The translations under genes and the position numbers were made by a program. This document shows, piece after piece, positions 11,660-35,236 of a stretch of 64,000 bases of DNA (its first letter is position 1; the number at the start of each line of letters is the position of its first letter). Under the pieces are notes generated by a model. It saw only the letters and a program-made list of their open reading frames with translations. It made no database searches and was not told where the DNA came from. Source of the DNA: an uncultured Candidatus Saccharibacteria bacterium (lineage in GTDB: Bacteria > Patescibacteriota > Saccharimonadia > Saccharimonadales > Saccharimonadaceae); assembly GCA_964584145.1 (NCBI GenBank), contig CAZOYU010000002.1, positions 19,956 through 83,955 on the forward strand, read 5' to 3'.

Positions 11660-11690
11660 AAAATAACTCCCGCAAGGGAGTATTTTTTTA
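11657..11690. terminator. bidirectional rho-independent terminator
   Basis: aaaaaataaCTCCCgcaaGGGAGtattttttt lies between convergent metG (+) and the LtaS-like gene (-). Confidence 0.8.
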
Positions 11691-11714
11691 GTGCGTTTAT
11701 TCTTGTCGCGTCCT

Positions 11715-13628: not shown

Positions 13629-13750
13629 TTCATTATAACATGCAGGCCTTGCGCTGGGGCTTCATGCTTATGCTTTTAATTCCGACATTTTCTCGGCAAA
13701 CTGAGAGTATGCAATGATTCCGACGCGATTATCATGCTTCACTGATTCCG

Positions 13751-15993: not shown

Positions 15994-17511
15994 ATGGAAT
16001 ATCTTATTCCAGTTATCGCGCTCATTTTGGGCGCGGGCGCTGGCGCAGGCAGTATTTTTGTCTACAATAAACATAATGAAACAGGTGGCAAGGCCAAAGC
16101 TGACGACCTCGTGCGCAAAGCTAAACACGAAGCTTCCGAGATTGTTTTGAATGCCAAAAAAGAGGCCTCTAACATCAATGAAAAAGCTCAACGCGAAGAA
16201 GATAGCCGCCGCAAAGAGTGGAAGCGTACCGAAGACCGCCTAGTTGAGCGTGAGAATTTGCTCGATACTAAACTCGACCAAATCGAGAAGAAGTCCGATC
16301 ATCTGCGCAAGCAAGAAGGCGAAATTGAAGAGCTCAAAGACGAAGTCCGCGCTATTCGCACTAAGGCGCAAGAAAAGCTCGAAAAAATCGCTGGTCTCAG
16401 CAAAACTGAAGCAAAAGAAAAGCTCATGACTATGACTGAGCGCGATATTAAAGAGGATCTCAGCAATCTCGTAATTAAGCAGCAAAAAGCTTTCAATGAC
16501 CATATCGACGACACTGCCGAAGCAATGTTGCTTACTGCTATGGAGCGCATGTCCTCTGAAGTTACCGCTGATCGCACTGTTACTAGCCTTAAACTACCCG
16601 ATGATGACATGAAGGGGCGCATTATTGGCAAGGAAGGGCGCAATATTCAAGCTCTCCAACATGCGACCGGCGTTGATGTATTAGTCGATGATACTCCGGG
16701 CATGGTTGTCCTCAGTAGCTTCGATCCAATTCGTCGCCAAGTCGCTCGCTATGCTTTGGAACGTCTCATGAAAGATGGCCGCATTAATCCGTCCAGCATC
16801 GAAGAGGCTGTTGCCAAAGCTGAGCGTGAAATCGAAAAAGAGGTCGTGCGTGCTGGCGAAGATGCCGCCCGCGAAGTTGGTGTCATTGGCATTCCTTCCG
16901 AAATTCTTCATCTTCTCGGCGAGCTCAAATTCCGCACCAGCTATGGCCAAAATGTTCTATTACATTCCATTGAGATGGCGCATATGGCCGGCATGATTGC
17001 CGAAGAAATCGGTGCCGACGTGCGCATTACTAAAACTGCTACCCTACTCCATGATATGGGCAAAGCGGTTACGCATAAAATTGAGGGGAAGCACGCCGAT
17101 ATTGGTGCCGAGCTGGCGAAAAAATATGGTATGGAAGATGCGATCGTGCATGCTATCGCCGCACATCATGACGATATCGAGCCAACCACGCCAGAAGCAA
17201 TCATTGTTAAAATCGTTGATGCCATTTCTGCTGCCCGCCCAGGCGCACGCAATATTTCTGCCGAGAACTTCGCTGAGCGTATGAAAGCGCTCGAGAATGT
17301 CGCCACCAGCTTTCAGGGCATCGATAAAGCCTACGCTATTTCGGCTGGTCGCGAAATTCGTGTCATCGTTGAACCGAAACAAATTGACGACCTCTCGGCG
17401 CTCAAGCTTGCGCGCGATATCGCCGACAAAATCGAAGCCACTATGCAGTATCCGGGTGTCGTCAAAGTTAATGTCATCCGCGAGACTCGCGCAATTGAAT
17501 ACGCTAAGTAG
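15994..17511 (+). CDS. rny: ribonuclease Y
   Basis: 505 aa. N-terminal TM helix, coiled coil, KH domain (GRIIGKEGRNIQ) and HD domain (LLHDMGK ... HHDD). Confidence 0.95.
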   Translation: MEYLIPVIALILGAGAGAGSIFVYNKHNETGGKAKADDLVRKAKHEASEIVLNAKKEASNINEKAQREEDSRRKEWKRTEDRLVERENLLDTKLDQIEKKSDHLRKQEGEIEELKDEVRAIRTKAQEKLEKIAGLSKTEAKEKLMTMTERDIKEDLSNLVIKQQKAFNDHIDDTAEAMLLTAMERMSSEVTADRTVTSLKLPDDDMKGRIIGKEGRNIQALQHATGVDVLVDDTPGMVVLSSFDPIRRQVARYALERLMKDGRINPSSIEEAVAKAEREIEKEVVRAGEDAAREVGVIGIPSEILHLLGELKFRTSYGQNVLLHSIEMAHMAGMIAEEIGADVRITKTATLLHDMGKAVTHKIEGKHADIGAELAKKYGMEDAIVHAIAAHHDDIEPTTPEAIIVKIVDAISAARPGARNISAENFAERMKALENVATSFQGIDKAYAISAGREIRVIVEPKQIDDLSALKLARDIADKIEATMQYPGVVKVNVIRETRAIEYAK

Positions 17512-17534
17512 CTGAAGTGAAACTGGAAGCATCC

Positions 17535-17562
17535 AAAAGCTAGCGTTCTTCGCTAGCTTTTT
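17535..17562 (+). terminator. rho-independent terminator after rny
   Basis: AAAAGCTAGCGttcttCGCTAGCTTTT followed by a T run. Confidence 0.8.
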
Positions 17563-17576
17563 CAGCTCTGTTTTAG

Positions 17577-17582
17577 TATAAT
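17577..17582 (+). promoter_or_regulatory. -10 box (TATAAT) 7 nt upstream of the A1 ATG; possible leaderless start
   Basis: tagTATAATattaagcATG. No Shine-Dalgarno sequence between the box and the ATG. Confidence 0.45.
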
Positions 17583-17589
17583 ATTAAGC

Positions 17590-18342
17590 ATGAGCTCAAA
17601 TAATCACCAATCTATTAATGAGCCAAATCAAGCCCCCGCACCTGATGATGTGTCGCTTCTTACTCCACCGAGTAACGACATCTCATCTGCGGATTCCGAG
17701 GTGAAGTTCAAGAGCGAAGATATTTCTAAGAAAAAACATACTCATTTCTTCCTCCATGTCAAAGAAGATGAAGATTCCGCAAAGGCCGCCCTGCGCCAAG
17801 CCAAAGCTGATAAGCGTCGCCGCACCTGGCGCCGTCATTGGCTGAAATTTTCCCTTGCTGGTGTTCTTGCACTTGCCGTTTTGATTGGCGGCGGCATCTA
17901 TATTAAGCACGTTGTTGATACTAAGGTTCAAGAAACCGCCGAAGCTGAAGCACTAGAGATTACTATTGCCGCCACATCGGCTGCCGGTGACAAAATTGTT
18001 GAAATTCGTAATTTGATGTATTCTGGTTCGCCTACCGCTCTTGACGACGTTAGAGATGCCTACGAAGACGCCATTTCTAACTCTGACGATATTATAGAGC
18101 GTCGCACTTTGGAGATCAGCTATGTTGAATATCTAACTTTTTTTGAAAAGCGGTATGCTGAAGCGCTCGAAAAACTTAATGTTTATGTTGAGCAATATGA
18201 AGATAAGGACCAATGCATAATTATTAATAGCTACATTGATATTTACATTGGCCTCGAAGACACTGAAAACATTGAAAAATATGAGGAACTTCGCGCGCAA
18301 AAATGTGCTACGGGTGAAAGCGACAATGAAGACTATCTCTAA
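17590..18342 (+). CDS. cassette protein A1: bitopic membrane protein with disordered/basic cytoplasmic head, one TM helix and an acidic helical ectodomain
   Basis: 250 aa. Motifs KSEDISKK..HFFLHVKEDEDSAKAA, basic stretch KRRRTWRRHW, TM LAGVLALAVLIGGGIYI, then a helical Asp/Glu/Tyr-rich C-terminal domain. Same architecture as A2 and A3. Confidence 0.85.
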   Translation: MSSNNHQSINEPNQAPAPDDVSLLTPPSNDISSADSEVKFKSEDISKKKHTHFFLHVKEDEDSAKAALRQAKADKRRRTWRRHWLKFSLAGVLALAVLIGGGIYIKHVVDTKVQETAEAEALEITIAATSAAGDKIVEIRNLMYSGSPTALDDVRDAYEDAISNSDDIIERRTLEISYVEYLTFFEKRYAEALEKLNVYVEQYEDKDQCIIINSYIDIYIGLEDTENIEKYEELRAQKCATGESDNEDYL

Positions 18343-21300
18343 GTTTCCGAAGGTCGTTCGAGCGTTCGTTCTTGCGACGATTATCTGTGCGCTTTTTGCG
18401 CAGAATATCTTTGCGAGTGGGTGGGGGGATTATGGGGGTGGTGCCGGTGGCGGGAGCTGCGCACCGCAAAATGCTACTCTTTGGGAAGATACCTGCTTTG
18501 GCGGTGCATGGGAATACTATGAGTATGTCGATAATTATATAGGTGAAGTTACTACTTATAGCTACGGCAGGTATGCGACAGGTATGACAATTCCCAAAGT
18601 TTGCTCTGAAATTGGCGGTTTTTATAGTTTTGGTATGATTCCTTACAATAACAGATACACCAGTGTTTACGATAGGATACAGAATGCTAACTGGGGCGTT
18701 TATCCAAGTAAACAACAAATGGGCACACTGAGGAAAGTCGGAAGTGCCGTAATACCTTTTTTGCCATATGATCAGATAAAGAACATCAAATCGAATTCGG
18801 TTGCAAAAAAGGGGTCAGGGGAATTTAGGGGTTATTCAGGAACGGGATTAAGCTATAAAGAGACTGGCGCTAAGTCTACGGGATATGCGGACCCAGATCA
18901 GGTATCAAAGGACTTTGAGAAAGCGAAAGATGCTGGTGTTATAGAGAATGGCGTTACGAAGGAAAATGTTGCCGCCTTCTGCTATGGCCCAAATATGCCG
19001 GGGGGAAGTAAAGCCAGTACTTTCGATTCCAGCTCCAAAGCGACAGTTAGTGGCGCCAGTGTAACTACTGGCTGGTCTGGTTGGGATTCGAAAACTACCA
19101 CTTCATATACTACAACTAGCTCAAGTGTCACGCTTGATTTTGAACATAAATTACGCAGAGTAGGCACTGGTGACAATATTAGTAATGCGGTGAGTGTTGG
19201 CTGGACTATTAGTAGTGCTTATAGTGCTTCTGGCACCGCCAGCTGGCCAGCCAATGTTGCCGGCGAAAAGAGTAATATTGGCGGGAAAAGCGTCACGGTT
19301 AATATAGCGCGCGGCGAAACAAAAACTGTCTGCGCCACCATTACGCACGCCAGCAAGATTAGCGGCAATACATCGAGCGGCAGCGAGAGCTCTACTGCCT
19401 GCATTACAATCACCCGCGAAGGTGGCGGTAGTAGCACTTGTGAGACTGGCAGAGGCGCATACCATAACAACATCGGCAGCACTGGCGTCAGCAAAAATGG
19501 CGGAGACTTCTCCTTTTCTGGCGATAATCCTAATGGAGATTTTAGTCGAAGTAACGAATTCGGCAATTATGTTAGTCTGACTAGTATCTGGGCCAAACCG
19601 GGCGATTCTATTCAATTTATGCATAGGATTTGTGCCGGCGCACAGAGCGTCGTTGACGATCCGAAGTCCGATCTCGGCAGTAGTTACAATACCTCTTATG
19701 ATTTTTCTGCTATTACCGCTTTCGACGGTGGTGCAAATATTGACTATCTCTTCGGTAATACGCTCGGGCAGCGCAAGAATAGCATCTCCGCCTCCGAACT
19801 AGAAGGGGAAAATTACGAGCTAGCTATTAGTTCGCCTAGTGAGGGCGCCAATTATGGCTGTAATCAAATGTCTGGCTCATCGATTATCGGTTACTATCGT
19901 ATTCCGAGCCTTTCCCATAACAACAACTGTCGGTCCGCTTCCGCAACTAGGCTTTCCGATGCCGGCAATACTATTACTCAGACTATGTCCTGGAAAGATC
20001 TTCGGGCCAAAGTGACTAGACATCATGAGAGCTGGACGGATAGCGAAGGTCATCACCATAGTCGTACCTGGTATACCACGGACGTCGATAGCACGCATAA
20101 CGGTAGTCGTACCTTTACTTCCGCCGCCAGCGTCTATGTTCCTTACAACTACATCATTAAGCCTTATATCGTGAGAACGGACGAAAGTAATTCGATTGTC
20201 ACGCTGGGCGGCGAAATCTCGACCAACGTTTATCTCCCCGTCGATAAGCGCGAAAACAAGCAAGTTGGCGGGACCTATGCCACTCAAACTAAACCGACTA
20301 AGGTTAAGGTCATTTCCTACGTTGCCAGCTCATTAAATACGCCTACTTCCGAAATTAGCTACTACGTCGACACGAATGGCGTCGCCACCAATAATCTTTG
20401 CTCAAGAATCAAGGGTAATGGGAGCGATCGGACCGTCACTAGGACTTGCAGAGTTGTCAAAGAAGAATCTGACGTAATCCTTAACGAGAACCCTACCGGC
20501 AATCTTGATGGCACCTATTCTTCTTCCGATTCCAAAAACAATAACGTCAATGCTGGCGGTTCATACTATGGAAATATTTCTGCAACCGTCCCTGACGCCG
20601 GTGATGATAACTATAATATCGGCGATCACTTCTGCATTGCTGTTGCGACTTGGCCAGGCGACAGCCATAATAGTGGCGCAGCGTCGTCCATCAATAAATC
20701 CAATCAACAGGTCGCCCTCTCCGATGATGCTGGCTCCGGCGCTCAGTGGTCCATCTCGGCGCCAACTTGTGTCACAATCGCCAAGAATCCAACTTTCAGC
20801 GTTGAAGGCTCGCAATTAGCTACTACTGGCAATGTTAGCTCGTCGGTCTTCAATCGTAGCGGCAAATATTATTATAGTTCTTGGTCTGAATATGGCATTG
20901 TTGCCGCCGGAGCTGTCAATAATACGGCTTCTGGTGCGGCAACCACCTACATTAATGCACTTGGTCTTAAATCTTTCAACAACCCCAATTACACTATTGG
21001 TCTAAAAGAGACAAATCTTGCTAGCGTTAGCGCCGGTGCTCATAATGGTGGCGGTCAAATCTTTAACTCACAGACTATGTATAATAAAAATGTTAACAAA
21101 CCGGGTGGCGCTACTAATTTGGGCATTGGTGAAGATATTCGTGACTTCTATGAATCTATTAAGAATGTCTATACACGCAAAGCAGACGATGCGTACCGGG
21201 ACGAGGCTGGCGTAAAATCCTATAACGATATATATCGCGTAAAGAATTCGTGGGGGCGGTATGTTTCGCCTACCAAATATAATGGTTATTATGATATCAC

Positions 21301-22123
21301 GCCTAATGCGGCTTACGCTTGTAAATATGACGCCCAGAAGGGTTATTACGTTGTGGCCAGTGGAGATATGGCCCGCGCTACGAAAATAGATTCTAAGACC
21401 GGAAGAGAAGTTAATACTGCGCCATACTATTGTCTAGACAATGGCGCCAAGTATCACCATGTTGTTGGCAATGCTTATATTGGTAACGCTAACGATGATA
21501 GTATCGCAACTCAGCTTCGTCTCTTTGTTGACGACCTTAAGAGCGGTGACAGTCAAGAGACTTATCGCAACCAGACTATGGTCATTCATGTCGAGGGTAA
21601 ACTCGTAATTGACGCTAATTTTATAATCGCAAACTATTATAACGGCCAAGAAGCCGACCGCTTTACAGATATTCAGCAAATTCCGCAAATTATTATCATT
21701 GCTGACAGTATTGATATTACCGCCAACGTCACTCGTATTGATGCCTGGCTTATTGCGGACATTGATAATGGTACTATTAATACCTGTGCCTACGACAATT
21801 TTAACGGTTTTCGTAGTGGGCAATATATTAATAGCGTTGGCAAGAGTTCTACGCTCACTGCGAATAAATGCAGTCGCGAGCTAGTTATTAATGGCCCAGT
21901 CACGACTAAGAATCTCATCCTTAATCGCACTGCTGGTGCTGGCACTCAGCCTTCGCGATTCAACTACAGTGGCACCTCGCTTCAAGCCAACGATGCTTAT
22001 TATGTTCAGCGCGGCGAAATCTTTAATCTCCGCCCTGATGCATATCTTTGGGGGTACTACCAAGCCCAGCGCAACGGTATCATTACGACCGTCTATTCGC
22101 ACGAATATCCAACCCGTTATTAA
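18326..22123 (+). CDS. cassette protein B1: giant secreted protein (1265 aa), unknown family
   Basis: The ATG at 18326 gives a Sec-type signal peptide (MKTISKFPKVVRAFVLATIICALFAQNIFA/SG) and overlaps the A1 stop by 17 nt. The ORF-track start 18236 lies inside A1. Shares its C-terminal ~845 aa with B2 and B3. Confidence 0.9.
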   Translation: MKTISKFPKVVRAFVLATIICALFAQNIFASGWGDYGGGAGGGSCAPQNATLWEDTCFGGAWEYYEYVDNYIGEVTTYSYGRYATGMTIPKVCSEIGGFYSFGMIPYNNRYTSVYDRIQNANWGVYPSKQQMGTLRKVGSAVIPFLPYDQIKNIKSNSVAKKGSGEFRGYSGTGLSYKETGAKSTGYADPDQVSKDFEKAKDAGVIENGVTKENVAAFCYGPNMPGGSKASTFDSSSKATVSGASVTTGWSGWDSKTTTSYTTTSSSVTLDFEHKLRRVGTGDNISNAVSVGWTISSAYSASGTASWPANVAGEKSNIGGKSVTVNIARGETKTVCATITHASKISGNTSSGSESSTACITITREGGGSSTCETGRGAYHNNIGSTGVSKNGGDFSFSGDNPNGDFSRSNEFGNYVSLTSIWAKPGDSIQFMHRICAGAQSVVDDPKSDLGSSYNTSYDFSAITAFDGGANIDYLFGNTLGQRKNSISASELEGENYELAISSPSEGANYGCNQMSGSSIIGYYRIPSLSHNNNCRSASATRLSDAGNTITQTMSWKDLRAKVTRHHESWTDSEGHHHSRTWYTTDVDSTHNGSRTFTSAASVYVPYNYIIKPYIVRTDESNSIVTLGGEISTNVYLPVDKRENKQVGGTYATQTKPTKVKVISYVASSLNTPTSEISYYVDTNGVATNNLCSRIKGNGSDRTVTRTCRVVKEESDVILNENPTGNLDGTYSSSDSKNNNVNAGGSYYGNISATVPDAGDDNYNIGDHFCIAVATWPGDSHNSGAASSINKSNQQVALSDDAGSGAQWSISAPTCVTIAKNPTFSVEGSQLATTGNVSSSVFNRSGKYYYSSWSEYGIVAAGAVNNTASGAATTYINALGLKSFNNPNYTIGLKETNLASVSAGAHNGGGQIFNSQTMYNKNVNKPGGATNLGIGEDIRDFYESIKNVYTRKADDAYRDEAGVKSYNDIYRVKNSWGRYVSPTKYNGYYDITPNAAYACKYDAQKGYYVVASGDMARATKIDSKTGREVNTAPYYCLDNGAKYHHVVGNAYIGNANDDSIATQLRLFVDDLKSGDSQETYRNQTMVIHVEGKLVIDANFIIANYYNGQEADRFTDIQQIPQIIIIADSIDITANVTRIDAWLIADIDNGTINTCAYDNFNGFRSGQYINSVGKSSTLTANKCSRELVINGPVTTKNLILNRTAGAGTQPSRFNYSGTSLQANDAYYVQRGEIFNLRPDAYLWGYYQAQRNGIITTVYSHEYPTRY
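21557..22123 (+). repeat. paralogous C-terminal module of B1 (ETYRNQT ... EYPTRY)
   Basis: FTDIQQIPQIIIIADSIDITANVTRIDAWLIA ... QRGEIFNLRPDAYLWGYYQAQRNGIITTVYSHEYPTRY. Near-identical blocks occur in B2 and B3. Confidence 0.9.
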
Positions 22124-22148: not shown

Positions 22149-22157
22149 TGCTAGTAT
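22149..22157 (+). promoter_or_regulatory. extended -10 (TGcTAGTAT) 6 nt upstream of the A2 ATG
   Basis: agTGcTAGTATataaacATG. No SD sequence and no terminator hairpin in the 40-nt B1-A2 spacer. Confidence 0.4.
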
Positions 22158-22163
22158 ATAAAC

Positions 22164-23249
22164 ATGAGCGAAAACGACTCAAGGCTTTTTGGCGAAGTTG
22201 ATTTTGATCCAACTGCAGCGTCTGACTCTCCCGCGACTCCCATTACCGATTCGCCGAATATTTCTAGTGCCGCTGACGAAGAGCGAAAACAAGAGGCTGC
22301 CGTCGATGCCGCGCGGCGCCGTACTGAAACTGTCGATATTGATAGCATTCCACTTGATAAAAAAGATGTGTATTTTAAAGCTGAAGATATTAAGAAACCG
22401 ACCGACGCAAGTTATTTTGTGAATGTTGAGGGTGAAGCGGAGCGTAAACGCGACGAAGCGCGTCGCGCTCGCGAACAAGCTGAACTTAAACGGCGCGCCG
22501 CCGCCGAAGATGCACAAAAGGCTGCTGCTAAGAAAAAAGCTGCGGAGCAGGCCGCTGCCCGCAAAGCTGCTGCCGAAAAGAAGGCCGCCGCTGCGACCGA
22601 CAAGCGTGTGCTAGGCGAACTTATGCGCAAGGCTCATGCTCGCAAAAAAGAAAATCGTCGCGTGCGTTTTCGTCGCCATCGGCAAAAGCTACGCGATCGC
22701 CTATTCAAAGGTGGCAATAAATTTATCACACTCGGCGCCACTCTCGCCGCCGCGGCATTGGTTCTAACTTTTGTCGTCATTCCGCTGCAACAAGCCGACG
22801 AGCGCCGTCAAGCCGACGAGCTTGCTCGACAGCAAGCTGCGGAATATGAACGGCGAAAAGAAACTGACGAATCGTTAATCGTTGAGGCAATTATAAATGA
22901 GGCTGATGAGCGTCTTGAATCGTATGATCTGGATGGCGCAGACGTTATTTACAATAATGCACTCGACAAGGCAACAAGCGATGAGTTGCGCTCTTATATC
23001 TACTTACATCGGTCACAGAAAATCTATCGGCTCATGTATGATTTGGAGCCAGAACGGGTCTACGAGGATGCTCTGAAAGCCTATGAATATGGACAAAAAT
23101 CTTATGAGGCTGTCAGTTGGTTGGCGTGGATTTATGAGTGTCGCAACGAAGATAATAAAGCTGCCGAGCTTCAGGGGCTACTTGAGCAAATCGTAAAAGA
23201 GCAAGCGAGCGAATCCTCTGAAAATAATACTGGAGAAGGACAAGGATAG
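22164..23249 (+). CDS. cassette protein A2: bitopic membrane protein with acidic head, long Ala/Lys/Arg coiled coil, TM helix and TPR-like ectodomain
   Basis: 361 aa. MSENDSRLFGEVDFD, VDIDSIPL, YFKAEDIKK, YFVNVEGE, about 60 aa of AEQAAARKAAAEKKAAA-type sequence, TM ITLGATLAAAALVLTFVVIPL, then a helical repeat domain (ALDKATSDELRSYIYLHRSQ...ALKAYEYGQKSYEAVSWLAWIY). Confidence 0.88.
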   Translation: MSENDSRLFGEVDFDPTAASDSPATPITDSPNISSAADEERKQEAAVDAARRRTETVDIDSIPLDKKDVYFKAEDIKKPTDASYFVNVEGEAERKRDEARRAREQAELKRRAAAEDAQKAAAKKKAAEQAAARKAAAEKKAAAATDKRVLGELMRKAHARKKENRRVRFRRHRQKLRDRLFKGGNKFITLGATLAAAALVLTFVVIPLQQADERRQADELARQQAAEYERRKETDESLIVEAIINEADERLESYDLDGADVIYNNALDKATSDELRSYIYLHRSQKIYRLMYDLEPERVYEDALKAYEYGQKSYEAVSWLAWIYECRNEDNKAAELQGLLEQIVKEQASESSENNTGEGQG

Positions 23250-23255
23250 TGCAAA

Positions 23256-26200
23256 ATGACGAATAACTTTTTAAGAGTGGTTGCGGTGGTCGCAACGATA
23301 ACTATATGCAGTCTTTTTCTGTGGACTGATAATGCTAATGCTGCAAGGACAAGCTGTGATAGTAGTAAAATATTTATCAATACAAGTTTGATTGCAAACT
23401 CGATTACGGACGCGAGCATTCAAGATATTGGCGCACTCGATGGTACCAGAGACTCGTCTATTGTTGGCACGGGCGCATGGGCGTGCGCTGAAACTAGCCG
23501 GGGAATTTTCTTTATTGCCGATAGTGTTGACCATGATGTGAATACCGGTAAATATATTATCAATCTTGATGTGAAAGTTAATCCAGAAAGTACGCGAAAC
23601 ACCGCGATTGCCATGGGCATGATTAACTATAAGCAAGAATCCGTAATCGATCAAAACGTTTATGCTATAAATATAAAATATTGTACCCAGGATTTTGAAT
23701 ATAGCTTCGTCTATGGTAAAGGCTATGATAACGTTGAATGTCCGGACGGGAGAGATGATGCGGGTGGCATAATAAATCAATATGGCTCAATTGTGCAGCG
23801 ACAAGGTGCCAATGATAATGTCTCAAGCGGGGCGTATGCCTATTGGTCGGAGCCTAAATATACATCCTCAACAATAAATGTTGATGGAACCGTTTTGAGT
23901 GCTAAATTAAATAATACTACTTTTAAACACGATAATGTCGTGAGGACTATTAATAATGGCAACACTTACGTAATAAAGTTATGGCAATGGCGCTGTTGGT
24001 CCTATGACATGTATAATTATAATAAATATAATAAAGATGCTTGCGCATCGAACCCGATTCTATTGGCAGTCGATATGAGTTGGAGTACGACTTTTGCCGG
24101 TAAGGTGGATAATATTAACGTCTCGGGCGCGAGCTATAATTCTTCTGACGGTAAATATTATACCGATAATGACGAGATTGATATTAAATATAACTATTAT
24201 CTTGCGAGAAATAATAATGGGCCAGACAAATCAGTGCAGGGGGGGTATACTACATATATATCATCCGGTGATGGCGCAAATGGCAATGTGAAATTATCAA
24301 AAAATTCTGGTTGGGCATGGGTGGCTTCTAGGACGGAGAGTGGACGTTCATTGAGTTATGGCGATAATACAATCTGCGGTAGAATTGGCTATTTTGTTAC
24401 AGTTAGTAGTGAAGGTGGCGGTAAAAATAAAGATTGGACCGAATCGTCAAAGTGTATTACTGTTCATAAATACAGTTGGTATGAATTTGAAGGTCAAGTC
24501 GTTCCATATGTTAATGATGTCTCAAAATCGAGCGGTAGCACCGTCTGGATTGACGGCAATTCTGCGAAGCTCAAGTTTGTACACCAACTTAAACGCACTG
24601 GCAGTGCCCAGACTCGCTACGGTACCAGCAAAAGCTCCAACTTGTCCAGTATTTTTAGTATTCAAAATTGGTATGGTACTTCTTCGTTAACTAACAATAA
24701 TAGTTGGCAGACGCAGAAAACTAGTGGCGATTCTGATTCTACTGTGAATATTGCTAAAAGCGATAGCGGATCTACCTATTGTCAATATCTGAAGTACTAT
24801 AAAACGGTACGCGATGATAGTAAAGATTTTAGAAACCAAGAAGAAAAGAGCGCCTGTGTCACCCTCAAACGTTATAAAACCAATTTTACTGGTAAGACTA
24901 CGGTTACTGTCAATGGCAAGGAATATAGTGATGGTGACACGATTACCGTTGAGAGTTCCGATGGTAAAATACCTGTGACCGTGCCGGTTGTCTTTAAGCA
25001 TACTGTTACGCGCAACTCTGAAAGCACGCCGCCATCCGCGCCAAGCAATAAAAAATCTAGTATCGCGATCTCGACTTCTGGCACTTCTGGCTGTCGTTCT
25101 GGCGATCCTTGCGGAACCAATACTAGTGCCGAGGATACCGACGAGCTCGCTTCTGGCGCCTCCTATACAAAGACACAGTCCATCAATACCAAAGTTTATC
25201 CAGACCAGACTATTAAAATCTGTCAACAAATGACCTACAAGAATCAAATTTGGGGCAGTAGCGAAAGCACTGCAACTGCCGACCAGGTCTGCGTTACGCT
25301 CAAGATGGATAAGGCGCTCTGCTCGGATAATACTCAATTTGGTATTCACGACGGTCAAAACCTCGGCTCGCTCAGTATTAGTAAAAATGTTAATAATAGC
25401 GACAGTAATACCGTCGTCAAATCTGGCGCCAAGAATACTGGCAGTACCGAAATAACAATGTGGGCTAAACCGGGTGACAATATCAGCTTCACGCACGATT
25501 CCTGTGCCGCCGCCGACTTGCCGAACCAGTTCCATAATAATGGCAAGACTACCACCTATAACGTCTCCGCCGGCCGCTCTAGCTCCTCCGGTTCGCTCGA
25601 CGCGACGGGTTATCTTTTTGGCAATAGTATCGGCTCCGAGCCATATACTAGCTCTTCTGCCACTATCGCTACTACCAACGCCAATTCCGGCACTGGACCA
25701 TTCAAGAGTGGCCAATATGCCGCGACTTATAAATCGCCAAGTACTAAATCCGACACCGACTATACTTGTACGACCGACTATTATGGTAATAGTCATCAAT
25801 CGAAAACTAATTATTATCAAATTACTTCTGATGTCGCCAAGACCAGTACGCTCACTAGCGCCCGCTGCAATTCTTACGTGAAAACTATTAATAATTCTAC
25901 GGACTATGCGATTGGCTCCAACGTCGGCACCTCTTTCTCGCAAACGCTTTCTTGGACCGACCTCTGGATTAGCAATGATTCTGTCGACAGTAGTCACAAC
26001 GGCTCTAAGACTGCCAGTATTAAAGGTACCGTTAGCGTGCCATACAATTACTACCTCTATCCGTATGTCGGCAATAATAGCACTAGCACTACTCAGACCG
26101 TCACTCCAGGGGCAAGCCTGAAAGCTAATGTTTACTTACCTGTCATGCAGCGCGAGAATAAGCAAGTTGGCGAAACTTATGCCACGCACACTAAGCCAAC

Positions 26201-28169
26201 CACTATTCGTGTCGTTTCTTTCATTATGCGTAGCGGTAGTCCGGCCAGCGACATTTCCTATACTAACGGCACCGAAACGCTTAACTATTCCAATATTTGT
26301 CGAATTGCCGCAGGTGGCAATAGTACGCTCAGTTGCACTATTCTCAATAACGGCGAAACGGATAACACTTACGAAAAACGCTATGTCTTAAATGCCTCGA
26401 CCAAAGACCAGCTAGGCGGCACGCTGAACGACACTAGCTTGATTACTTCTAGTGTCGCTGATACTAACGATAGCAATATTGTCTTGTCGCGTTCTGGATC
26501 AGTCGTGATGAATAGTGTTTCTGTTGATGTGCCGGAAACCACTATCAATAATCAGCAGGGCAGCCTTCGTCTTGGTGATAAGGTTTGTATCGCGGTTGCG
26601 GCTTGGCCAAGCGACAGCCATAACCTCGGCGCTGCTACCTCCGTCGACAGCACTAACCAATCTGTCGCGCTGACTAGCTCTGGCTCCGGCTCGCAATGGG
26701 TCGTTTCTGTGCCATACTGTTCGACGGTCGCCAAAACACCAAGCTTTAGCGTAGAAGGCTCGCAGCTTTCCGTTTCCGGCGATGTTACGACTTCTAATGT
26801 AACTCACAACGGTCGTCGCTACGGTTCATGGACAGAATATGGTTTGCTCGCTGGTGGCACAGTTACGAATATGACTTCAGGCGCTGCTACCGCTTATATT
26901 GATGCTCAATCGCTCGTTGTAACTAGTGGCACGGAATATGTTCTTAAATATAGCGCCGCTAACCGCACCGCTAGCGCTACTAAAGCAGGCGCCAATAGTA
27001 AAACGGCTAGTGTTTGCCTTTATAATTCGCAGACTTATCTCAAAGATTACGATTGTAATAATGCAGGTGGTGCGTCTACGATCGTGACCGAAGATAGTAT
27101 CAACGATATTCTTGAACGTATCCGCGATGTTTATACCCGCAAGAATAGTACTAGCAATTATCATGAAGAAGCGGGCGTCAAACGCATTAATGACCTTCAA
27201 TATGCTTGGGACTACGACGGCTCTAGGACTGATATCAAGATTGATGTTAATGGTAAATCTTACTACGACCTCTCGCCGCGCAATGCTTATGCTTGTGAAT
27301 ATAGCGAAGACCTCGGCTACTATGTCCCGAACAGCAAAGATGCCGAGCGTGCTATTACTACCGACGGCAAGAAAACTGCGCCATTTTACTGCCTCTCTAA
27401 CGGTGCCCATTATTACTATGTCGAAGGTGATGCCTATATTGGCGCGCAGAGCGATAGTATCTATGGTCAGTACCTCAACTTTGTTGATGACCTTACTGGT
27501 AGCTCCGATCAAGAAACTTATCGCAACCAGACCATGGTTGTACACGCTACTGGTACGCTCGTGATTGACACCAATCTTATTGTCGATAGTTACTATTCGG
27601 CTTACAACGGCTATCACCGCGTCGATCTCTTTACGGATATTCAGCAGATTCCGCAGATTATCATTATCGCCGACAAGATTCAAATCACCTCTAGCGTGTC
27701 CCGTATTGATGCTTGGCTAGTCGCGGATGGGCTCGACAGCGGCAATGGCGAGATTAATACCTGCGCCTACGAAAACTTTAATGCCTTTAAGCGCGGCGAA
27801 TATATCAAACAGGCGGGCAACGGTAGTCTCTTAAGCGCCAAGAATTGTGACCGCACGCTCATGTTTAATGGCCCAGTTTTCGCTAAGAGTATTATTCTGA
27901 ATCGCACTGCTGGTGGCGGTACTAAGGTGCTTGGCGCAGCCGAGCAATGGAATAGCTCTAGCGGTGGCGGTCATGGTCGCTATGACTGGTGGTATGGCCA
28001 TGTTCAGCAGAGTTCTGGCCAAACGCTCGCCATTGACGCAACCACTTATGCTCAGCGTGGCGAAATCTTCAACCTTCGTGCTGACACTTATCTTTGGGCC
28101 TACTATCAAGCTCAACGTAACGGCATTCTTACGACCGTCTTCACCAAAGAATTGCCAACGCGTTATTAG
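23256..28169 (+). CDS. cassette protein B2: giant secreted protein (1637 aa), unknown family
   Basis: Signal peptide MTNNFLRVVAVVATITICSLFLWTDNANA/A. Starts 6 nt after the A2 stop, with a GGAGAAGGA SD-like site inside the A2 3' end. N-domain shared with B3, three ~100-aa Cys-bracketed modules, then the common core. Confidence 0.92.
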   Translation: MTNNFLRVVAVVATITICSLFLWTDNANAARTSCDSSKIFINTSLIANSITDASIQDIGALDGTRDSSIVGTGAWACAETSRGIFFIADSVDHDVNTGKYIINLDVKVNPESTRNTAIAMGMINYKQESVIDQNVYAINIKYCTQDFEYSFVYGKGYDNVECPDGRDDAGGIINQYGSIVQRQGANDNVSSGAYAYWSEPKYTSSTINVDGTVLSAKLNNTTFKHDNVVRTINNGNTYVIKLWQWRCWSYDMYNYNKYNKDACASNPILLAVDMSWSTTFAGKVDNINVSGASYNSSDGKYYTDNDEIDIKYNYYLARNNNGPDKSVQGGYTTYISSGDGANGNVKLSKNSGWAWVASRTESGRSLSYGDNTICGRIGYFVTVSSEGGGKNKDWTESSKCITVHKYSWYEFEGQVVPYVNDVSKSSGSTVWIDGNSAKLKFVHQLKRTGSAQTRYGTSKSSNLSSIFSIQNWYGTSSLTNNNSWQTQKTSGDSDSTVNIAKSDSGSTYCQYLKYYKTVRDDSKDFRNQEEKSACVTLKRYKTNFTGKTTVTVNGKEYSDGDTITVESSDGKIPVTVPVVFKHTVTRNSESTPPSAPSNKKSSIAISTSGTSGCRSGDPCGTNTSAEDTDELASGASYTKTQSINTKVYPDQTIKICQQMTYKNQIWGSSESTATADQVCVTLKMDKALCSDNTQFGIHDGQNLGSLSISKNVNNSDSNTVVKSGAKNTGSTEITMWAKPGDNISFTHDSCAAADLPNQFHNNGKTTTYNVSAGRSSSSGSLDATGYLFGNSIGSEPYTSSSATIATTNANSGTGPFKSGQYAATYKSPSTKSDTDYTCTTDYYGNSHQSKTNYYQITSDVAKTSTLTSARCNSYVKTINNSTDYAIGSNVGTSFSQTLSWTDLWISNDSVDSSHNGSKTASIKGTVSVPYNYYLYPYVGNNSTSTTQTVTPGASLKANVYLPVMQRENKQVGETYATHTKPTTIRVVSFIMRSGSPASDISYTNGTETLNYSNICRIAAGGNSTLSCTILNNGETDNTYEKRYVLNASTKDQLGGTLNDTSLITSSVADTNDSNIVLSRSGSVVMNSVSVDVPETTINNQQGSLRLGDKVCIAVAAWPSDSHNLGAATSVDSTNQSVALTSSGSGSQWVVSVPYCSTVAKTPSFSVEGSQLSVSGDVTTSNVTHNGRRYGSWTEYGLLAGGTVTNMTSGAATAYIDAQSLVVTSGTEYVLKYSAANRTASATKAGANSKTASVCLYNSQTYLKDYDCNNAGGASTIVTEDSINDILERIRDVYTRKNSTSNYHEEAGVKRINDLQYAWDYDGSRTDIKIDVNGKSYYDLSPRNAYACEYSEDLGYYVPNSKDAERAITTDGKKTAPFYCLSNGAHYYYVEGDAYIGAQSDSIYGQYLNFVDDLTGSSDQETYRNQTMVVHATGTLVIDTNLIVDSYYSAYNGYHRVDLFTDIQQIPQIIIIADKIQITSSVSRIDAWLVADGLDSGNGEINTCAYENFNAFKRGEYIKQAGNGSLLSAKNCDRTLMFNGPVFAKSIILNRTAGGGTKVLGAAEQWNSSSGGGHGRYDWWYGHVQQSSGQTLAIDATTYAQRGEIFNLRADTYLWAYYQAQRNGILTTVFTKELPTRY
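27513..28169 (+). repeat. paralogous C-terminal module of B2 (ETYRNQT ... ELPTRY)
   Basis: FTDIQQIPQIIIIADKIQITSSVSRIDAWLVA ... QRGEIFNLRADTYLWAYYQAQRNGILTTVFTKELPTRY. Confidence 0.9.
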
Positions 28170-28204: not shown

Positions 28205-28235
28205 AAAAAGCTAGCATTTTTTCGCTAGCTTTTTT
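28205..28235 (+). terminator. rho-independent terminator after B2
   Basis: AAAAAGCTAGCattttttcGCTAGCTTTTT. Sequence-related to the rny terminator at 17535-17562. Confidence 0.8.
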
Positions 28236-28248
28236 AGTTCGATTTCAG

Positions 28249-28254
28249 TAAGAT
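28249..28254 (+). promoter_or_regulatory. -10-like box (TAAGAT) 6 nt upstream of the A3 ATG
   Basis: cagTAAGATataagcATG. No SD sequence. Confidence 0.4.
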
Positions 28255-28260
28255 ATAAGC

Positions 28261-29052
28261 ATGAGCGCCAATGATTCTCGGCCTTTTGGCGAGGTGAATC
28301 CAGATTCTTCCACAGATTCCTCTGCGGATTCTCCACATTTTGTTTCCCCGAATATTACTGATGCTGCCGAAGAGGAGCAAAAGGCGCAGGCGCAAGCCGC
28401 CGCCGAGCAGAGGCAAGCCGAAACTGTGAATATTGATGGTGTTCCGATTGCTGATCAGGATATTCAATACAAAACGCGCGATATTGTTGCTAAGAAAGCT
28501 GATGCGAAATATTTCGTGAATGTTAAGGAAGAGGAGGATGCTGCGAAAGCGCAGGCGCATCAAGCTAAAGCGGCTCAGCACAAAACTCGTTGGCGTCGCT
28601 ATGGCCGCCCAATTTTGGTTGTCGCTATTGTTCTTATTCTCGCTGCTGCTGGCGGTTTTGTCGCAAGATATTTTCTCGATCGGCAGGACGAAGAGGCAAA
28701 AGCGGCTGTTGAGGAATTGCTCTATGAAGCGGCTGATTGTTTAGAGGCGTCCAATCTCGATTGTGCGAATGAATACTATGAGAAGGCGCTCAGTCGTGCG
28801 GCGACGGATGAAGAGCGTTCGTTTGTCTATCTTCATTACTCTCAGTCCCTCGATGGGCTTATGCGTGATCAAGAATCAAATCGAATATATGAGTATGCGC
28901 TCAAGGCCTATGAGTTGAATCCTAATGACCGCAGTATAGTTTGGTGGCTTGTTGATGTTTATAATAATCGCGGCGAGGAAGATAAAGCGAAGGAATTTGA
29001 AGAGAAGCTAGAAGCATTGCCGGTAGATGAAGATGAATATGGAGAAGGGTGA
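28261..29052 (+). CDS. cassette protein A3: bitopic membrane protein, paralog of A2
   Basis: 263 aa. MSANDSRPFGEVNPD, VNIDGVPI, YKTRDIVAKK, YFVNVKEEED, RWRRYGRP + TM ILVVAIVLILAAAGGFV, then a TPR-like ectodomain (YYEKALSRAATDEERSFVYLHYSQ...ALKAYELNPNDRSIVWWLVDVY). Confidence 0.88.
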   Translation: MSANDSRPFGEVNPDSSTDSSADSPHFVSPNITDAAEEEQKAQAQAAAEQRQAETVNIDGVPIADQDIQYKTRDIVAKKADAKYFVNVKEEEDAAKAQAHQAKAAQHKTRWRRYGRPILVVAIVLILAAAGGFVARYFLDRQDEEAKAAVEELLYEAADCLEASNLDCANEYYEKALSRAATDEERSFVYLHYSQSLDGLMRDQESNRIYEYALKAYELNPNDRSIVWWLVDVYNNRGEEDKAKEFEEKLEALPVDEDEYGEG

Positions 29053-29053
29053 A

Positions 29054-32000
29054 ATGAAGATTAAAATAAAGACCGTTGCCTTGATTGCTATCGTTGCTAT
29101 TTTTTCTACGACGCTTTTGGGGTTTGGTAAAAATGAAGCTTATGCGAAGGCCTGGACTCTGTCTAGATCTAACGATAGGGGTAATTGTCTAACTGGCGGT
29201 GGCCGTATTGATGTTGTTTCTAAAGCGAAGAAAAACGGCAAAACAGTAATCAGAGATATTGGTGACTTGGGCAATTTTGGTCAATTGGGTAATGAGAATA
29301 AATACGATGAATATAGTGGCGGTTGGGCATGCGCACGATGGTACGAAACGGGGAATATGTGGCATGGAATTATGTTCATAGCTAGCAGTGTCGAGGAGAC
29401 CGGAAGCGGGAATAATAAACAGTACAAAATCAACGTCGATGTCAGTGTTAATTTGAAAAGTAGCAATAACACGGCAATTGCTATGGGCATGGTTCATACT
29501 GGTAGCAATGCAACGAATAAGGCTATAAATATCGAGTATTGTACGCATTATTATGCTAATACAGGGTGGTGCACGGATAAGACTAAAGGTGCAGATGGTA
29601 TTATATCTAGTTACGACAAAACCGTGCTTCGGCAGAACTCACGCAACCGGCCAACTAGTAGCTATAGTTACTGGACCCCGCCAATTCACGCGTTAGCGAC
29701 CAGTTCGGAGCAATCATTTATAACAATTGATGGTCCAAGGCTTGCTGAAAAAATGCAAGAAACGGAGTTTGCTACAAAGAACGTTAAATATTTAGATGAC
29801 GGTTATACCGCAATCGTGCTTTATCAATACCGCTGCTGGTCGAAGAATGGTGGCACTGGAGAATGTGGCGTAAGTCCGATAGTTTTAATATTGGACACTA
29901 GCGGTACGACTGATGATCCTCCAAGCTCAACTTCTTGCGACTCCACGAACTCATATAGCAATAGCGGTAAATCCGGCGTCCGTAAAAACGGTGGCAGCAT
30001 CGCTTATACGAATAATAATTCTGGCACAGTTAGTACTTGGGCGAAACCAGGAGATTCTATTCAATTTACGCACACAACTTGTGCTGCCGCCCAAAAGCTT
30101 ATTGATGACAATCAGGCGTATCTGGGTTCTTATGATTCTAACTATACCGTTTCTGCAAGTACCACCAACGGCACCAATGGCAGAGGCTATATATTTGGTA
30201 ACGACTTGAGCGGTAACTCGTCCGCTAGTATCCCAAGTTCCACGCTAAAGAATAATGAGTATGCTTATACTGCGAATTCGCCGAGCGATGACGCTGGATC
30301 TACATATAGCTGCGATGGTGTTTACGATGGTTTCATATCGGGCCATTATCAGATTCCGGATTTGAATATTAGGAGTGACAAATGTGGGGCATCTAGGAAA
30401 ACTGTTGCGTCTGATGCTGGCAATACAATTACGCAAACATTAGCATGGCGCGACTTCGACATTAAATGGCAGACTATCTATCATGACGCCGAAATAGATG
30501 AGGCGGGCAACGTTATTAAGCCGAGAACATCTGAAAATATCCCTTATGTAAATAGTTCTACCGACTACTCCACTAGCGCCAGCGTCTATATTCCATACAA
30601 CTACATTCTCAAGCCCTATATTGAAGGAAATAAAAATGACACAGGGGATAAAAGCCAAACCGCTACCATCGGTGGCAAATACGACGTTACTGCTTATGTT
30701 CCCGTTGATGTTCGTAAAAATAAACAAGTTGGTGATACTTATGCTACTAGCACGAAAGATACCAAAATTAAAATTGTGTCGTTCGTATTGGATTCTAGTA
30801 GCCAGCCAACCAGTAGCGTTACTTATCACGCTAATAATGGCGATGCGGGGGCGAGCAGTATTTGTAGATACGCCGCTGCCAGCGGAAATGTTAAGCATTG
30901 TGCAAATATCGCCGATGAGACTATTACGCTTAACCAAAATACTTCCGGTAATCTCAGCGGCACGCTAGGCAATGAAGCTTCGATTAGTGAGGGTGGTTCT
31001 AAGCTTGTTCTTAATGACGGCATCGAGGCTTCTGTACCAAAAAATAACATCAGTCTCGGCGATAAAATTTGTGTCGCAGTCGCCACCTGGCCGAGCGATA
31101 GCCATAATCTTGGCGATGCTGCAACTGTCGATAGCTATGACCAGAGTGTTGCTCTCACTAATAGTGCGGGAAGTAACGCTAAATGGGCCGTCTCTGCGCC
31201 AAGCTGCGCCACCATCACGAAGCGCCCAATCTTTAGCGTCGAAAGTTCGCAACTTTCCGCTACTGGCACAATTAACTCCTCGACCTATACGCGTGATAAG
31301 CTCACCTTCAGCTCTTGGGCAGAATATAGCATTGCCACCTCTGAGGAAAATGGCGTTGAAGATACCGCTTCCGGCGCAGCTACTGCCTATATCGACGCGC
31401 TCAATCTTAATTATCGCTATAATCCTTACGAGCCTAAATACGCCATTGCTTCCAGGGAAGTTAATCTTGCCAATACGCGTGCTGGCACAAAAAGTACCAG
31501 AACCTTTACTGCGCAAACTATGCTCAATTCTGGTAATGGCAGCCCCGGTGGCGCTACCACGCTTGAGCTCGCTGAGAATATCGAAAAATTCTATACATCT
31601 ATCGAAAATATCTATACGCGCAAAGGCAAGACTAAGACTCAATCTGGTGCCGGTATTGCAAATTTCAATGACCTTAGCGAACTAAAAGGCTCCAAAAAAC
31701 TAACCGTCAAGAATAATTATTATGATCTCTCGATTGGGTCCTCGTATGCTTGCGTTTACGATGAAAATAAAGGTTATTATGTCGCCTATGATAGCGACGC
31801 TACGCTCGGCAAGGATAAAAAAGGCAACCCAACTGCGCCATATTATTGTCTAAGCAATGGCTCCAAGTATTATCATGTCGAGAATGCTAATGCTTATATT
31901 GGTGGTGGCGGCGAGAGAAATAGTGGCGGCTATACTCAATTTCGTCTTACTGTGAACGATCTTGATGGTTCTGGCGGTCAAGAAACTTTCCGCAACCAAA

Positions 32001-32536: not shown

Positions 32537-32566
32537 AAGAGAAGTTTTAAAAATCGAAAACGTTAA

Positions 32567-32574
32567 TGTATAAT
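32567..32574 (+). promoter_or_regulatory. extended -10 (TGTATAAT) 6 nt upstream of the pseudopilin-1 ATG at 32581
   Basis: aaTGTATAATattactATGagtaaa. No SD sequence. The alternative ATG at 32566 lies inside the box itself. Confidence 0.45.
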
Positions 32575-32580
32575 ATTACT

Positions 32581-35227: not shown

Positions 35228-35236
35228 AGGAGGTAT

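Follow-up and report, generated by a model that had tools for sequence, protein, structure and literature searches.

Among bitopic platform proteins, PilN binds PilM through its INLLP motif, and GspL binds GspE. The class II tetratricopeptide repeat (TPR) chaperones of type III translocators (LcrH/SycD, IpgC, PcrH and SicA) are soluble, acidic, cytoplasmic proteins of 15–18 kDa that act before secretion, and the TPR pilotins PilF, PilW and Tgl are lipoproteins of the outer membrane whose client is the secretin. Saccharibacteria are usually regarded as monoderms that lack a secretin. TfcP of Myxococcus xanthus, a soluble non-canonical cytochrome c, is an accessory factor of a PilY1-type pilus-tip adhesin (PMC8833165). 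Saccharibacteria live attached to other bacteria, with type IV pili and surface adhesins as known keys to this life (PMC11623550, PMC10633639). They also show natural competence (PMC10633639). Here we describe A, a family of small membrane proteins encoded next to giant secreted proteins, B, in an uncultured Candidatus Saccharibacteria bacterium (family Saccharimonadaceae; assembly GCA_964584145.1). The analyzed stretch of DNA, hereafter the window, comprises 64,000 nucleotides (nt) of contig CAZOYU010000002.1 (positions 19,956 to 83,955 of the forward strand) and is part of a 796-kb genome that is 97.7% complete. It contains three tandem A-B gene pairs, or cassettes, between rny (15994–17511) and four minor-pilin-like genes (32566–36799); coordinates are those of the window, and the A, B and minor-pilin-like genes are all on its + strand.

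The A proteins are characterized by their architecture and topology, by the pairing of each A gene with a B gene, by features of the promoter and of the A-B junction, and by a hypervariability that A and B share. We tentatively propose, somewhat short of an even chance, that each A protein serves its own B as a membrane-anchored TPR partner specific to the cassette, in the role of chaperone, tether or loader, and that its constant head would be docked to a shared cytoplasmic component. B itself is probably a giant secreted, pilus-borne adhesin. The analysis followed up a first-pass annotation of the A2 gene (22164–23249), made from the DNA sequence, which had singled out the A proteins as a new-looking family of bitopic proteins.

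Domain organization and predicted topology of the A proteins

A2 (361 amino acids, aa) is predicted to be a type II (N-in/C-out) single-pass membrane protein. Its cytoplasmic head (residues 1–91; 22164–22436) was delimited from family alignments and is disordered in the AlphaFold2 model. The head is followed by a long cytoplasmic helix rich in Ala, Lys, Arg and Glu (residues 90–182; 22431–22709), which is seen in the model, falls in alignment gaps of A1 and A3 and is apparent from K/R counts. The single transmembrane (TM) helix, at about residues 187–207 (22722–22784), coincides with the Kyte-Doolittle maximum, and the extracytoplasmic 3-TPR-like domain (residues 236–354; 22869–23225) was defined from model confidence (pLDDT), Foldseek and the family profile. 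In the model, which was built from a 29-sequence alignment and has a mean pLDDT of 79, residues 1–88 score below 50 apart from a weak helix at 36–55, a continuous helix spans residues 90–182, the TM helix runs on into a stalk (186–234), and the seven helices of the outer domain reach a pLDDT of 96–98. The helical stretch of A2 is thus longer, at about 90 residues, than the 60 aa given in the first-pass annotation; it terminates in the basic patch RRVRFRRHRQKLRDR (residues 165–179). Across the family, the length of the charged helix ranges from near zero to about 90 residues. The paralogue A1 (17590–18342, 250 aa) has a reduced head and an ectodomain of a different class. Its model shows the same layout, with a disordered head (1–56), a helix that includes the TM segment (57–143) and five confident helices (150–239). 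In A3 (28261–29052, 263 aa), the head is complete, the long helix is missing and the TPR ectodomain resembles that of A2. All three proteins, as had been described from the translations, have a basic patch ahead of the TM helix (RFRRHR in A2, RWRR in A3 and WRRH in A1), a single TM helix and an acidic C-terminus.

Topology was assessed in 52 family members by Kyte-Doolittle hydropathy and the positive-inside rule. Each of the 52 contains exactly one strong hydrophobic segment (mean Kyte-Doolittle value 2.8; second-best segments average 0.5), and in A2 the maximum of 2.43 is located at residue 188, with a second-best segment of 0.14. On average, 7.4 K/R residues are found in the 20 residues before the TM helix and 2.8 in the 20 residues after it, and the net charge is +5 on the N-terminal side and −16 on the C-terminal side. 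From one TM helix combined with this K/R and charge bias, the positive-inside rule predicts an N-in/C-out topology for 52/52 members. The sole hydrophobic segment begins, after the charged head, at residue 87 in A1, 188 in A2 and 117 in A3; with this distance from the N-terminus it would be a signal-anchor and not a signal peptide, and no cleavable N-terminal signal peptide was found in A1–A3. The first-pass annotation had made both predictions and had staked its proposal on an outside location of the C-terminal domain, which is what is predicted in every member.

Foldseek searches with the A2 ectodomain returned 3-TPR peptide-binding domains (such as HIP, CHIP, HOP and SGT) with E-values from 2e-3 and a target-normalized TM-score of about 0.6. 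When the family profile was compared with the PDB, it matched consensus TPR proteins at 5e-18 (multi-repeat chains) and CTPR3 at 5.5e-5 (profile positions 193–307). For the A1 ectodomain, the Foldseek helical-repeat matches were insignificant (best E-value 0.08). The TPR superfamily fold, taken as a right-handed solenoid of at least three tandem helix-turn-helix repeats of ~34 residues each, is therefore present in ectodomains of the A2/A3 type and applies loosely to A1. Confident helical-repeat folds are seen in both the A2 and A1 models, as anticipated; the label TPR-like, which had been applied to all three ectodomains, is sound for A2 and A3, on both profile and Foldseek evidence, and generous for A1, a generic helical repeat, because its five helices gave no significant Foldseek match. 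No Pfam TPR model was reached by A1–A3 singly (the best matches, DUF4919 and ARM_TT21, were below cut-off), and any single TPR model was matched by at most 2 of the 52 members at E≤0.01; close homologues bear precomputed PF14559 and PF13432 assignments. The ectodomains of some relatives (loci L012, L014 and L015) look β-rich and non-TPR by sequence. The part of A2 after the TM helix has a mass of 18 kDa and a pI of 4.4, and ectodomains are uniformly small and acidic across the family: about 145 aa, a median of 16.9 kDa, a median pI of 4.36 (range 4.05–5.06) and a mean net charge of −17.

The translations of A1, A2 and A3 align over a shared N-terminal motif set, which identifies them as real paralogues. 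Common to A2 and A3 are MS(E/A)NDSR(L/P)FGEV, SPNI, ETV(D/N)ID(S/G)(I/V)P, a (Y/F)K..DI..KK block and YFVNV(E/K)(G/E)E, and A1 retains the last two blocks only, in degenerate form (FKSEDISKK and HFFLHVKEDED). In A2 these motifs read MSENDSRLFGEV (residues 1–12), SPNI (30–33), ETVDIDSIP (55–63), VYFKAEDIKK (69–78) and YFVNVEGE (84–91). The motifs shared by A2 and A3 and their degenerate A1 version had been recognized in the first-pass annotation, which the alignment corrects in one detail: A2 reads DIKK instead of DI..KK, and the alignment places a gap of one residue here against A3. For the head, the family consensus reads MSANDA..GEV....F.SPNI.S ... ETV.IDGVPI.E.DIKFKA.DI.KK....YFVNVEGAE.R, and the core that is kept most widely is (V/I).F.S.DI.....(Y/F)F(V).V. 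The head motif was seen solely in A-like open reading frames (ORFs) of 230–390 residues, and longer ORFs were matched through the low-complexity helix only. The A2 head had no match in PDB, Pfam or NCBIfam. Located within predicted disorder, the head motifs would act like short linear motifs that fold on a partner.

Family status and distribution

The A proteins constitute an unnamed small protein family that, judged from the sequence searches, is confined to Saccharibacteria. Nothing above cut-off was found in Pfam and NCBIfam for A1–A3, for the head alone or for the 52 relatives. Weak matches to curated models (PBP_N, GspL, GspM, TolA and anti-sigma) were rejected, as they cover only the basic-patch/TM stretch or the low-complexity helix. 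A word-index search of 5.8 billion proteins gave 6 close relatives, and a hidden Markov model (HMM) search of 1.84 billion cluster representatives gave 122 matches at E≤1e-3, 42 of them at E≤1e-10. About 50 of the 122 representatives carry the head motifs; the others are shorter, with a reduced head or just a TM helix and a helical domain of ~150 residues. The description of A as a new-looking family is borne out by the lack of a fitting Pfam or NCBIfam model and by the small set recovered in the HMM search. Full-text literature searches returned papers on the Saccharibacteria pilus and on transposon sequencing, in which the A family is not described.

With a narrow profile, matches were obtained in 12 of 24 other species of the genus, and no match was obtained in the 16 genomes that represent other families of the order. 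With a broad 52-sequence profile, all of the 59 genus genomes contain a match at E≤0.001, the weakest of which cover the low-complexity helix only. The window's own genome contains A1, A2 and A3 as its only copies. All A loci with an organism name on record come from Candidatus Saccharibacteria metagenome-assembled genomes, many of them from the gut of goat, sheep and roe deer. One or two in-frame stop codons are present in several A matches of other species (G155, G169, G014, G013, G145 and G168), and in locus L037 the first B gene (11345–14744) is broken into ORFs of 753 and 424 aa; these apparently broken cassettes suggest turnover of individual cassettes.

Pairing of A and B genes next to pilus genes

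Each A gene of the window is followed by the gene of its cognate giant secreted protein: B1 (18326–22123), which shares its first 17 nt, the ATG included, with the end of A1, B2 (23256–28169), a protein of 1637 aa with a signal peptide and the C-terminus ...KELPTRY, and B3 (29054–32536). The B proteins end in a conserved ...PTRY, and a scan of curated families found no toxin or enzyme family in B. Related loci were collected with a 15-sequence alignment, and 19 were tabulated (18 from the GTDB genome collection and a near-duplicate assembly of the closest relative). In these 19 loci, the well-matching A genes are located directly upstream of a gene for a protein with the B core in 27 of 27 cases. 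Among same-genus loci, 16 of 17 profile matches directly precede a long, signal-peptide-bearing ORF; the remaining one, to a generic TPR protein, was discarded as false. In a genus-wide search, strong A matches were found 3–5 kb upstream of matches to the B C-terminus on the same strand (about 20 cases inspected by eye). A single-sequence search across the order with the C-terminal 499 residues of B gave matches in 3 of 121 genomes, the window's own included. The first-pass annotation had predicted that A homologues would not commonly lack a B-like neighbor, and no well-matching homologue without one was found.

The four minor-pilin-like genes, which have N_methyl Pfam matches, are directly 3′ of the three cassettes in the window. 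Their synteny is kept in relatives, in which G-F-T-[LI]-I-E motifs are also present. Most loci contain one to three cassettes between rny and pilV-pilZ-pilW-pilX. In six loci an A-B pair is placed elsewhere, and in two of these a canonical pilin gene (KKGFTIIEVVLV...) comes next. Even where no more than weak A matches were obtained, as in two complete genomes of the genus, an A with a reduced head is found between rny and B, upstream of pilV. Outside the family, hand inspection of genomes from two other Saccharibacteria families (G069 and G031) revealed a bitopic ORF of 175–209 residues before each B-like giant, which ends in ...ELPPVY or ...SLPPTL. These cassettes (L056, G069:C1:220000-238000; L057, G031:C6:9000-24000) are located directly upstream of pilM, pilN (MIQINLLPDVK), pilO and pilB, and these neighborhoods strengthen the genomic link of A-B cassettes to pilus genes.

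Other features of the neighborhood were noted. An additional ORF of 261–264 aa with an N-terminal TM helix (MKIFKKKFSKKAKIQIAVGSAVILALIV...) is located between rny and the first A gene in L034 (9178–9963), L041 (9084–9878) and L053 (1197–1982) and is absent from the window. ComEC is encoded in the window by a single ORF of 477 aa (13751–15184). In several relatives (L034–L037 and L040) comEC, upstream of tsaE, is broken into two or three ORFs, which could point to a decaying competence channel in some members of the genus or to errors in assembly. On the − strand of contig C4 of the window's own genome, a bitopic protein (73861–74733; at least 290 aa up to the contig end, with a TM helix at residue 40 and a helical outside part) is followed, with an overlap of 14 nt, by a giant of 1209 aa with a signal peptide (70245–73874). 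The C4 giant lacks the PTRY end, and the C4 bitopic protein is marginally similar to A (E-value 2.4e-4). Pairs of a small membrane protein and a giant secreted protein may be a wider feature of this genome.

A constant head and a joint variable unit

Sequence identity was compared between the window and its closest relatives (L027/L024 and the Logan contigs L060/L061). In the A2 and A3 cassettes, the A head and TM helix are 80–100% identical; in the A1 cassette, conservation of the head is limited to the motif core. Identity falls to 10–60% in the A ectodomain (up to 80% just after the TM helix in A2) and to 0–50%, mostly 20–40%, in the first 280–400 residues of B, and it rises again to mostly 60–100% in the B core (70–100% in B2). 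When B2 is aligned with its L027 counterpart, the first ~400–520 residues are 10–40% identical, mostly 20–40%, with two segments near residues 440–520 that reach 60% and 40%, and from about residue 560 identity is 70–100%. The part that varies thus comprises the A ectodomain and the B N-domain, with the constant head on one side and the constant B core on the other. Within A, conservation is lowest in the ectodomain (median normalized similarity 0.07), and three different ectodomains are found on near-identical heads of the A3 type (normalized score 0.85–0.95), namely that of the window, that of P0006–P0009 and an A1-type ectodomain in P0010.

Co-variation was evaluated with Mantel tests (Spearman) on 32 non-redundant A-B pairs. 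The similarity of ectodomains correlates with that of the first 300 mature residues of B (r=0.49, P≤0.0005), and the correlation persists when the head is controlled for (partial r=0.465, P=0.0005). The correlation of the ectodomain with its own head is lower (r=0.24, P≤0.0005), and no significant correlation was obtained between the ectodomain and the C-terminal 400 residues of B (r=0.05) or between the N-domain and C-terminus of B (r=−0.02). In a clustering analysis, the ectodomain classes are nested in those of the B N-domain, apart from a single exception. A strict one-to-one matching of ectodomain and B N-domain classes is ruled out by this clear exception and by one broad B class.

Putative promoter and A-B junction

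An extended −10-like box, TGcTAGTAT (22149–22157, + strand), ends 6 nt before the A2 ATG without a Shine-Dalgarno (SD) sequence and represents a putative leaderless promoter of A2-B2. Of 34 A genes in the window and loci L005–L044, 32 have such a box, most often TGcTAAAAT, at a distance of about 6 nt from the ATG, against a background of 13% of all ATGs in the window that are preceded by the pattern, and an SD-like sequence is found upstream of one of the 34. The boxes of the window are TATAAT for A1, TGcTAGTAT for A2 and TAAGAT for A3 (stretches 17575–17592, 22149–22166 and 28249–28263). The box ~6 nt before the ATG and the absence of an SD sequence suggest a leaderless A-B transcript, and a leaderless start may help to explain the conserved ATGAGCGC (Met-Ser-Ala) start. 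Near-identical hairpins (aaaagctagc...gctagcttttt) were seen by eye before the A1 and A3 promoters (17531–17560 and 28205–28236), and the element, gctagctttttt, recurs in L027; these two upstream hairpins are not listed by a consensus terminator scan.

The distance from the A stop codon to the B start codon ranges from −41 to +29 nt at 33 junctions, and in 31 of these 33 an SD-like GGAG, GAGG or AAGG is contained within the last A codons. For B2, the SD-like sequence GGAGAAGGacAAGGA (23232–23246, + strand) lies in the codons for the C-terminal ..GEGQG of A2, followed by the A2 stop codon (23247–23249) and the B2 ATG (23256), so that the junction reads ctGGAGAAGGacAAGGAtag, six bases and ATG; the A3 junction is GGAGAAGGGtgaaATG. 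A C-terminal G-E-G, G-K-G or G-R-G is present in 18 of 35 A proteins and results from translation of the SD-like GGAGAAGG or GGAGGG of B (23232–23249, 29041–29053 and 18311–18325). It can therefore be regarded as an imprint of the ribosome-binding site (RBS) of B and not necessarily as a protein motif. Of the acidic tail described in the first-pass annotation, the acidity is found in all three proteins, and the terminal G-E-G is traced to the SD-like sequence of B. The simplest reading of these features is that each cassette is probably transcribed as one leaderless A-B mRNA, from which B would be translated by coupling.

Discussion

In the reading that we favor, that of a membrane-anchored partner dedicated to its own B, the A mRNA would start at its own AUG and B would be translated from the RBS in the last codons of A; with this site embedded in A, the two proteins would be made together. 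The ectodomain of A would capture the N-terminal domain of B as it leaves the Sec translocon and would chaperone or tether B at the membrane of a monoderm cell, which would have no periplasm to retain it, until the conserved core of B passes to the minor-pilin complex of the type IV pilus. The constant head would dock the A protein of every cassette to a single cytoplasmic partner common to all of them, which would be the pilus machine or the translocon, and different A-B cassettes would be interchangeable plug-ins. The earlier suggestion that A is an adaptor rather than an enzyme is compatible with a disordered, motif-bearing head joined to a TPR domain. The support for its further suggestion, that the head might link the giant to a pilus ATPase or platform, is genomic, namely the position of the cassettes next to minor-pilin genes in the window and next to pilM-pilN-pilO-pilB in two other families. 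In its fullest form, the proposal would make the A-B cassettes plug-in modules that confer specificity on the type IV pilus of Saccharibacteria. The ectodomain would then be a dedicated extracytoplasmic chaperone-loader that co-evolves with the host-binding N-domain of a tip adhesin B, and the head would be a new kind of docking peptide that brings each cassette to the motor or platform of the pilus, or else to the adjacent translocon; all of this together is doubtful.

Several points weigh against a dedicated partner. The role of B as a pilus-tip adhesin is one that we infer ourselves. The full head is largely restricted to the genus, and the pilus machine is found across the phylum. A1 and the third A of the closest relative share an ectodomain class and have different B N-domains, that of the relative belonging to the B3 class, and the broad B N-domain class 8 is paired with five ectodomain classes. 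No electrostatic complementarity was found between the ectodomain (on average −17) and the B N-domain (about −1). Recombination between the conserved flanks, i.e. the head and the B core, would swap the whole block and so produce co-variation without function; the joint variability fits functional coupling and, read from sequence variation, also fits such flank recombination.

Flank recombination combined with a common pressure from outside is what would account for co-variation if A were an independent envelope protein, for example an organizer or scaffold of the wall or membrane, that shares an operon with B without contact. The pairing of one B N-domain class with unrelated ectodomain classes agrees with this possibility, as do the bulk properties of ectodomains, which are alike across classes (about 145 aa, pI 4.1–5.1) and suggest a generic physico-chemical role, and the bitopic-plus-giant pair of unrelated sequence on contig C4. 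We nonetheless consider it unlikely: the tight pairing (27/27 and 16/16) and the embedded RBS are hard to reconcile with unrelated functions, the ectodomain tracks the B N-domain better than its own head (r of 0.49 versus 0.24), and a domain of 130–160 residues on a short stalk would be unlikely to extend past the wall, where outside selection would act. A could also be a transmembrane signal transducer, whose ectodomain would monitor the state of B (loaded, pulled or lost on host contact) and whose head would signal by partner switching or regulated proteolysis, as in anti-sigma factors or sensors of the ToxR/CadC type. The N-in layout with a cytoplasmic motif region, one TM helix and a variable outside domain matches such bitopic proteins, and a head made of short linear motifs is typical of regulated binding; the NCBIfam anti-sigma model (14.2 bits, cut-off 100) and the periplasmic domain of CadC in Foldseek gave a very weak and a weak match, respectively, neither of them significant. 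This role is quite unlikely, as no anti-sigma or DNA-binding domain was detected in the disordered head with Pfam and NCBIfam, the production of A is coupled to that of B and not separate, and inspection of the genes from comEC to rnhA, and of the rny-(A-B)n-pilV synteny of relatives, revealed no sigma factor or regulator; the neighbors are comEC, tsaE, rny, B and pilins, so that A does not have the hallmarks of a membrane-tethered regulator.

The remaining explanations assign a narrower task to the ectodomain. As an immunity-like inhibitor, it would mask a harmful or sticky B N-domain on the surface of the producer, and the position of a variable domain next to a small co-varying partner gene does recall toxin-immunity and fibre-chaperone modules. 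This is improbable given that B contains no recognizable toxin or enzyme family, that one ectodomain class is paired with two B N-domain classes, and that immunity proteins need no conserved cytoplasmic head of 90–190 residues. Alternatively, the TPR ectodomain could be a receptor of the carboxylate-clamp type for the near-invariant ...ELPTRY tail of B, which it would use to anchor B. HOP, CHIP and SGT bind the EEVD tail of Hsp70/Hsp90, and the best Foldseek matches of A2 are 3-TPR domains that bind C-terminal peptides, which together with the conserved ...PTRY at the ends of B proteins speaks for the idea. An invariant ligand predicts a conserved groove, yet the ectodomain is the least conserved part of A and has no conserved Lys/Asn/Arg clamp columns. 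Moreover, some ectodomain classes look non-TPR by sequence, the E-values from Foldseek are weak, and domains of this kind make up most of the small TPR structures in the PDB, so we regard tail binding as highly improbable.

If A is the partner of B proposed above, it provides a concrete candidate for the missing step in which a giant adhesin is handled and loaded in a wall-bearing cell without a periplasm. It may also be a determinant of host specificity, as it varies along with the presumed host-binding end of B. The constant cytoplasmic head could be used as a bait for the machine to which it docks. For annotation, members of the family can be identified from the motif set, the architecture and the gene position, together with the −10 box located 6 nt ahead of the ATG and the RBS contained in the final codons, and the promoter and RBS signature helps to set the start codons of both A and B. 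Were the plug-in proposal true, A would be an unrecognized class of type IV pilus component that couples the choice of adhesin to the machine, and it would offer a handle on how episymbionts switch or diversify host recognition. Should contact between A and B not be confirmed, the finding reduces to a lineage-specific TPR membrane protein.

Comparison with known systems

In layout, the proteins nearest to A appear to be the bitopic platform proteins of the PilN and GspL type. PilN, PilO, GspL and GspM are likewise N-in/C-out single-pass proteins encoded in pilus loci, with a conserved cytoplasmic N-terminal peptide that can bind a part of the machine. However, the outside domain of A is all-helical and TPR-like instead of ferredoxin-like, and A is a multi-copy protein with a hypervariable outside part and a cargo gene as its partner. 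The INLLP motif is found in no A head of the family alignment, and canonical PilN (MIQINLLPDVK) is encoded by a separate gene in related genomes. The NCBIfam scores for GspL (20.7 bits, cut-off 65) and GspM (14.5 bits, cut-off 60) are well below cut-off, and the matches span the juxtamembrane/TM stretch only.

In size, charge, fold and gene position, A seems closest to the TPR chaperones of type III translocators, a comparison that draws on general knowledge. These are acidic three-TPR proteins of ~15–18 kDa encoded directly upstream of a large secreted protein, and the A ectodomain, with its median of 16.9 kDa and pI of 4.36 and its gene directly upstream of B, is likewise a small acidic three-TPR protein next to its cargo. 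In contrast to these chaperones, the TPR domain of A is predicted to be outside the membrane and anchored to it. There was no class II TPR chaperone among the 60 best PDB profile hits, and the window showed no genes for type III secretion. A shares with the TPR pilotins a TPR domain on the outer side of the cytoplasmic membrane and a genetic link to the biogenesis of type IV pili, but differs from them in its TM anchor, its cytoplasmic head and its pairing with an adhesin gene.

With phage tail fibres and their Tfa-type chaperones, and with polymorphic toxin-immunity pairs, the A-B cassettes share a contiguous hypervariable block that spans a gene end and the neighboring gene between conserved flanks, and a matching of the two variable parts at the level of classes. 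The order and polarity are reversed in A-B, however: the partner gene comes first, and the giant carries its variable domain N-terminally; A is a membrane protein with a constant cytoplasmic head, and phage or toxin families were not detected. In function, the nearest counterparts of A would be the cluster-specific helpers of PilY1-type tip adhesins, such as TfcP. In that system, too, a small extracytoplasmic protein encoded in one minor-pilin/PilY1 cluster supports the large adhesin of the same cluster, and a genome contains several alternative adhesin sets in which the C-terminal part of the adhesin is conserved and the N-terminal part is variable. Unlike TfcP, A is membrane-anchored and TPR-like with a long cytoplasmic head, and it is strictly one per adhesin, translationally coupled and hypervariable; no sequence relationship between PilY1 and B was detected. 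In summary, A lacks the defining features of the PilN/GspL-type and type III TPR chaperone families, and it is best described as a probable dedicated accessory of a pilus-linked adhesin, with a defined modular structure and an unprecedented architecture.

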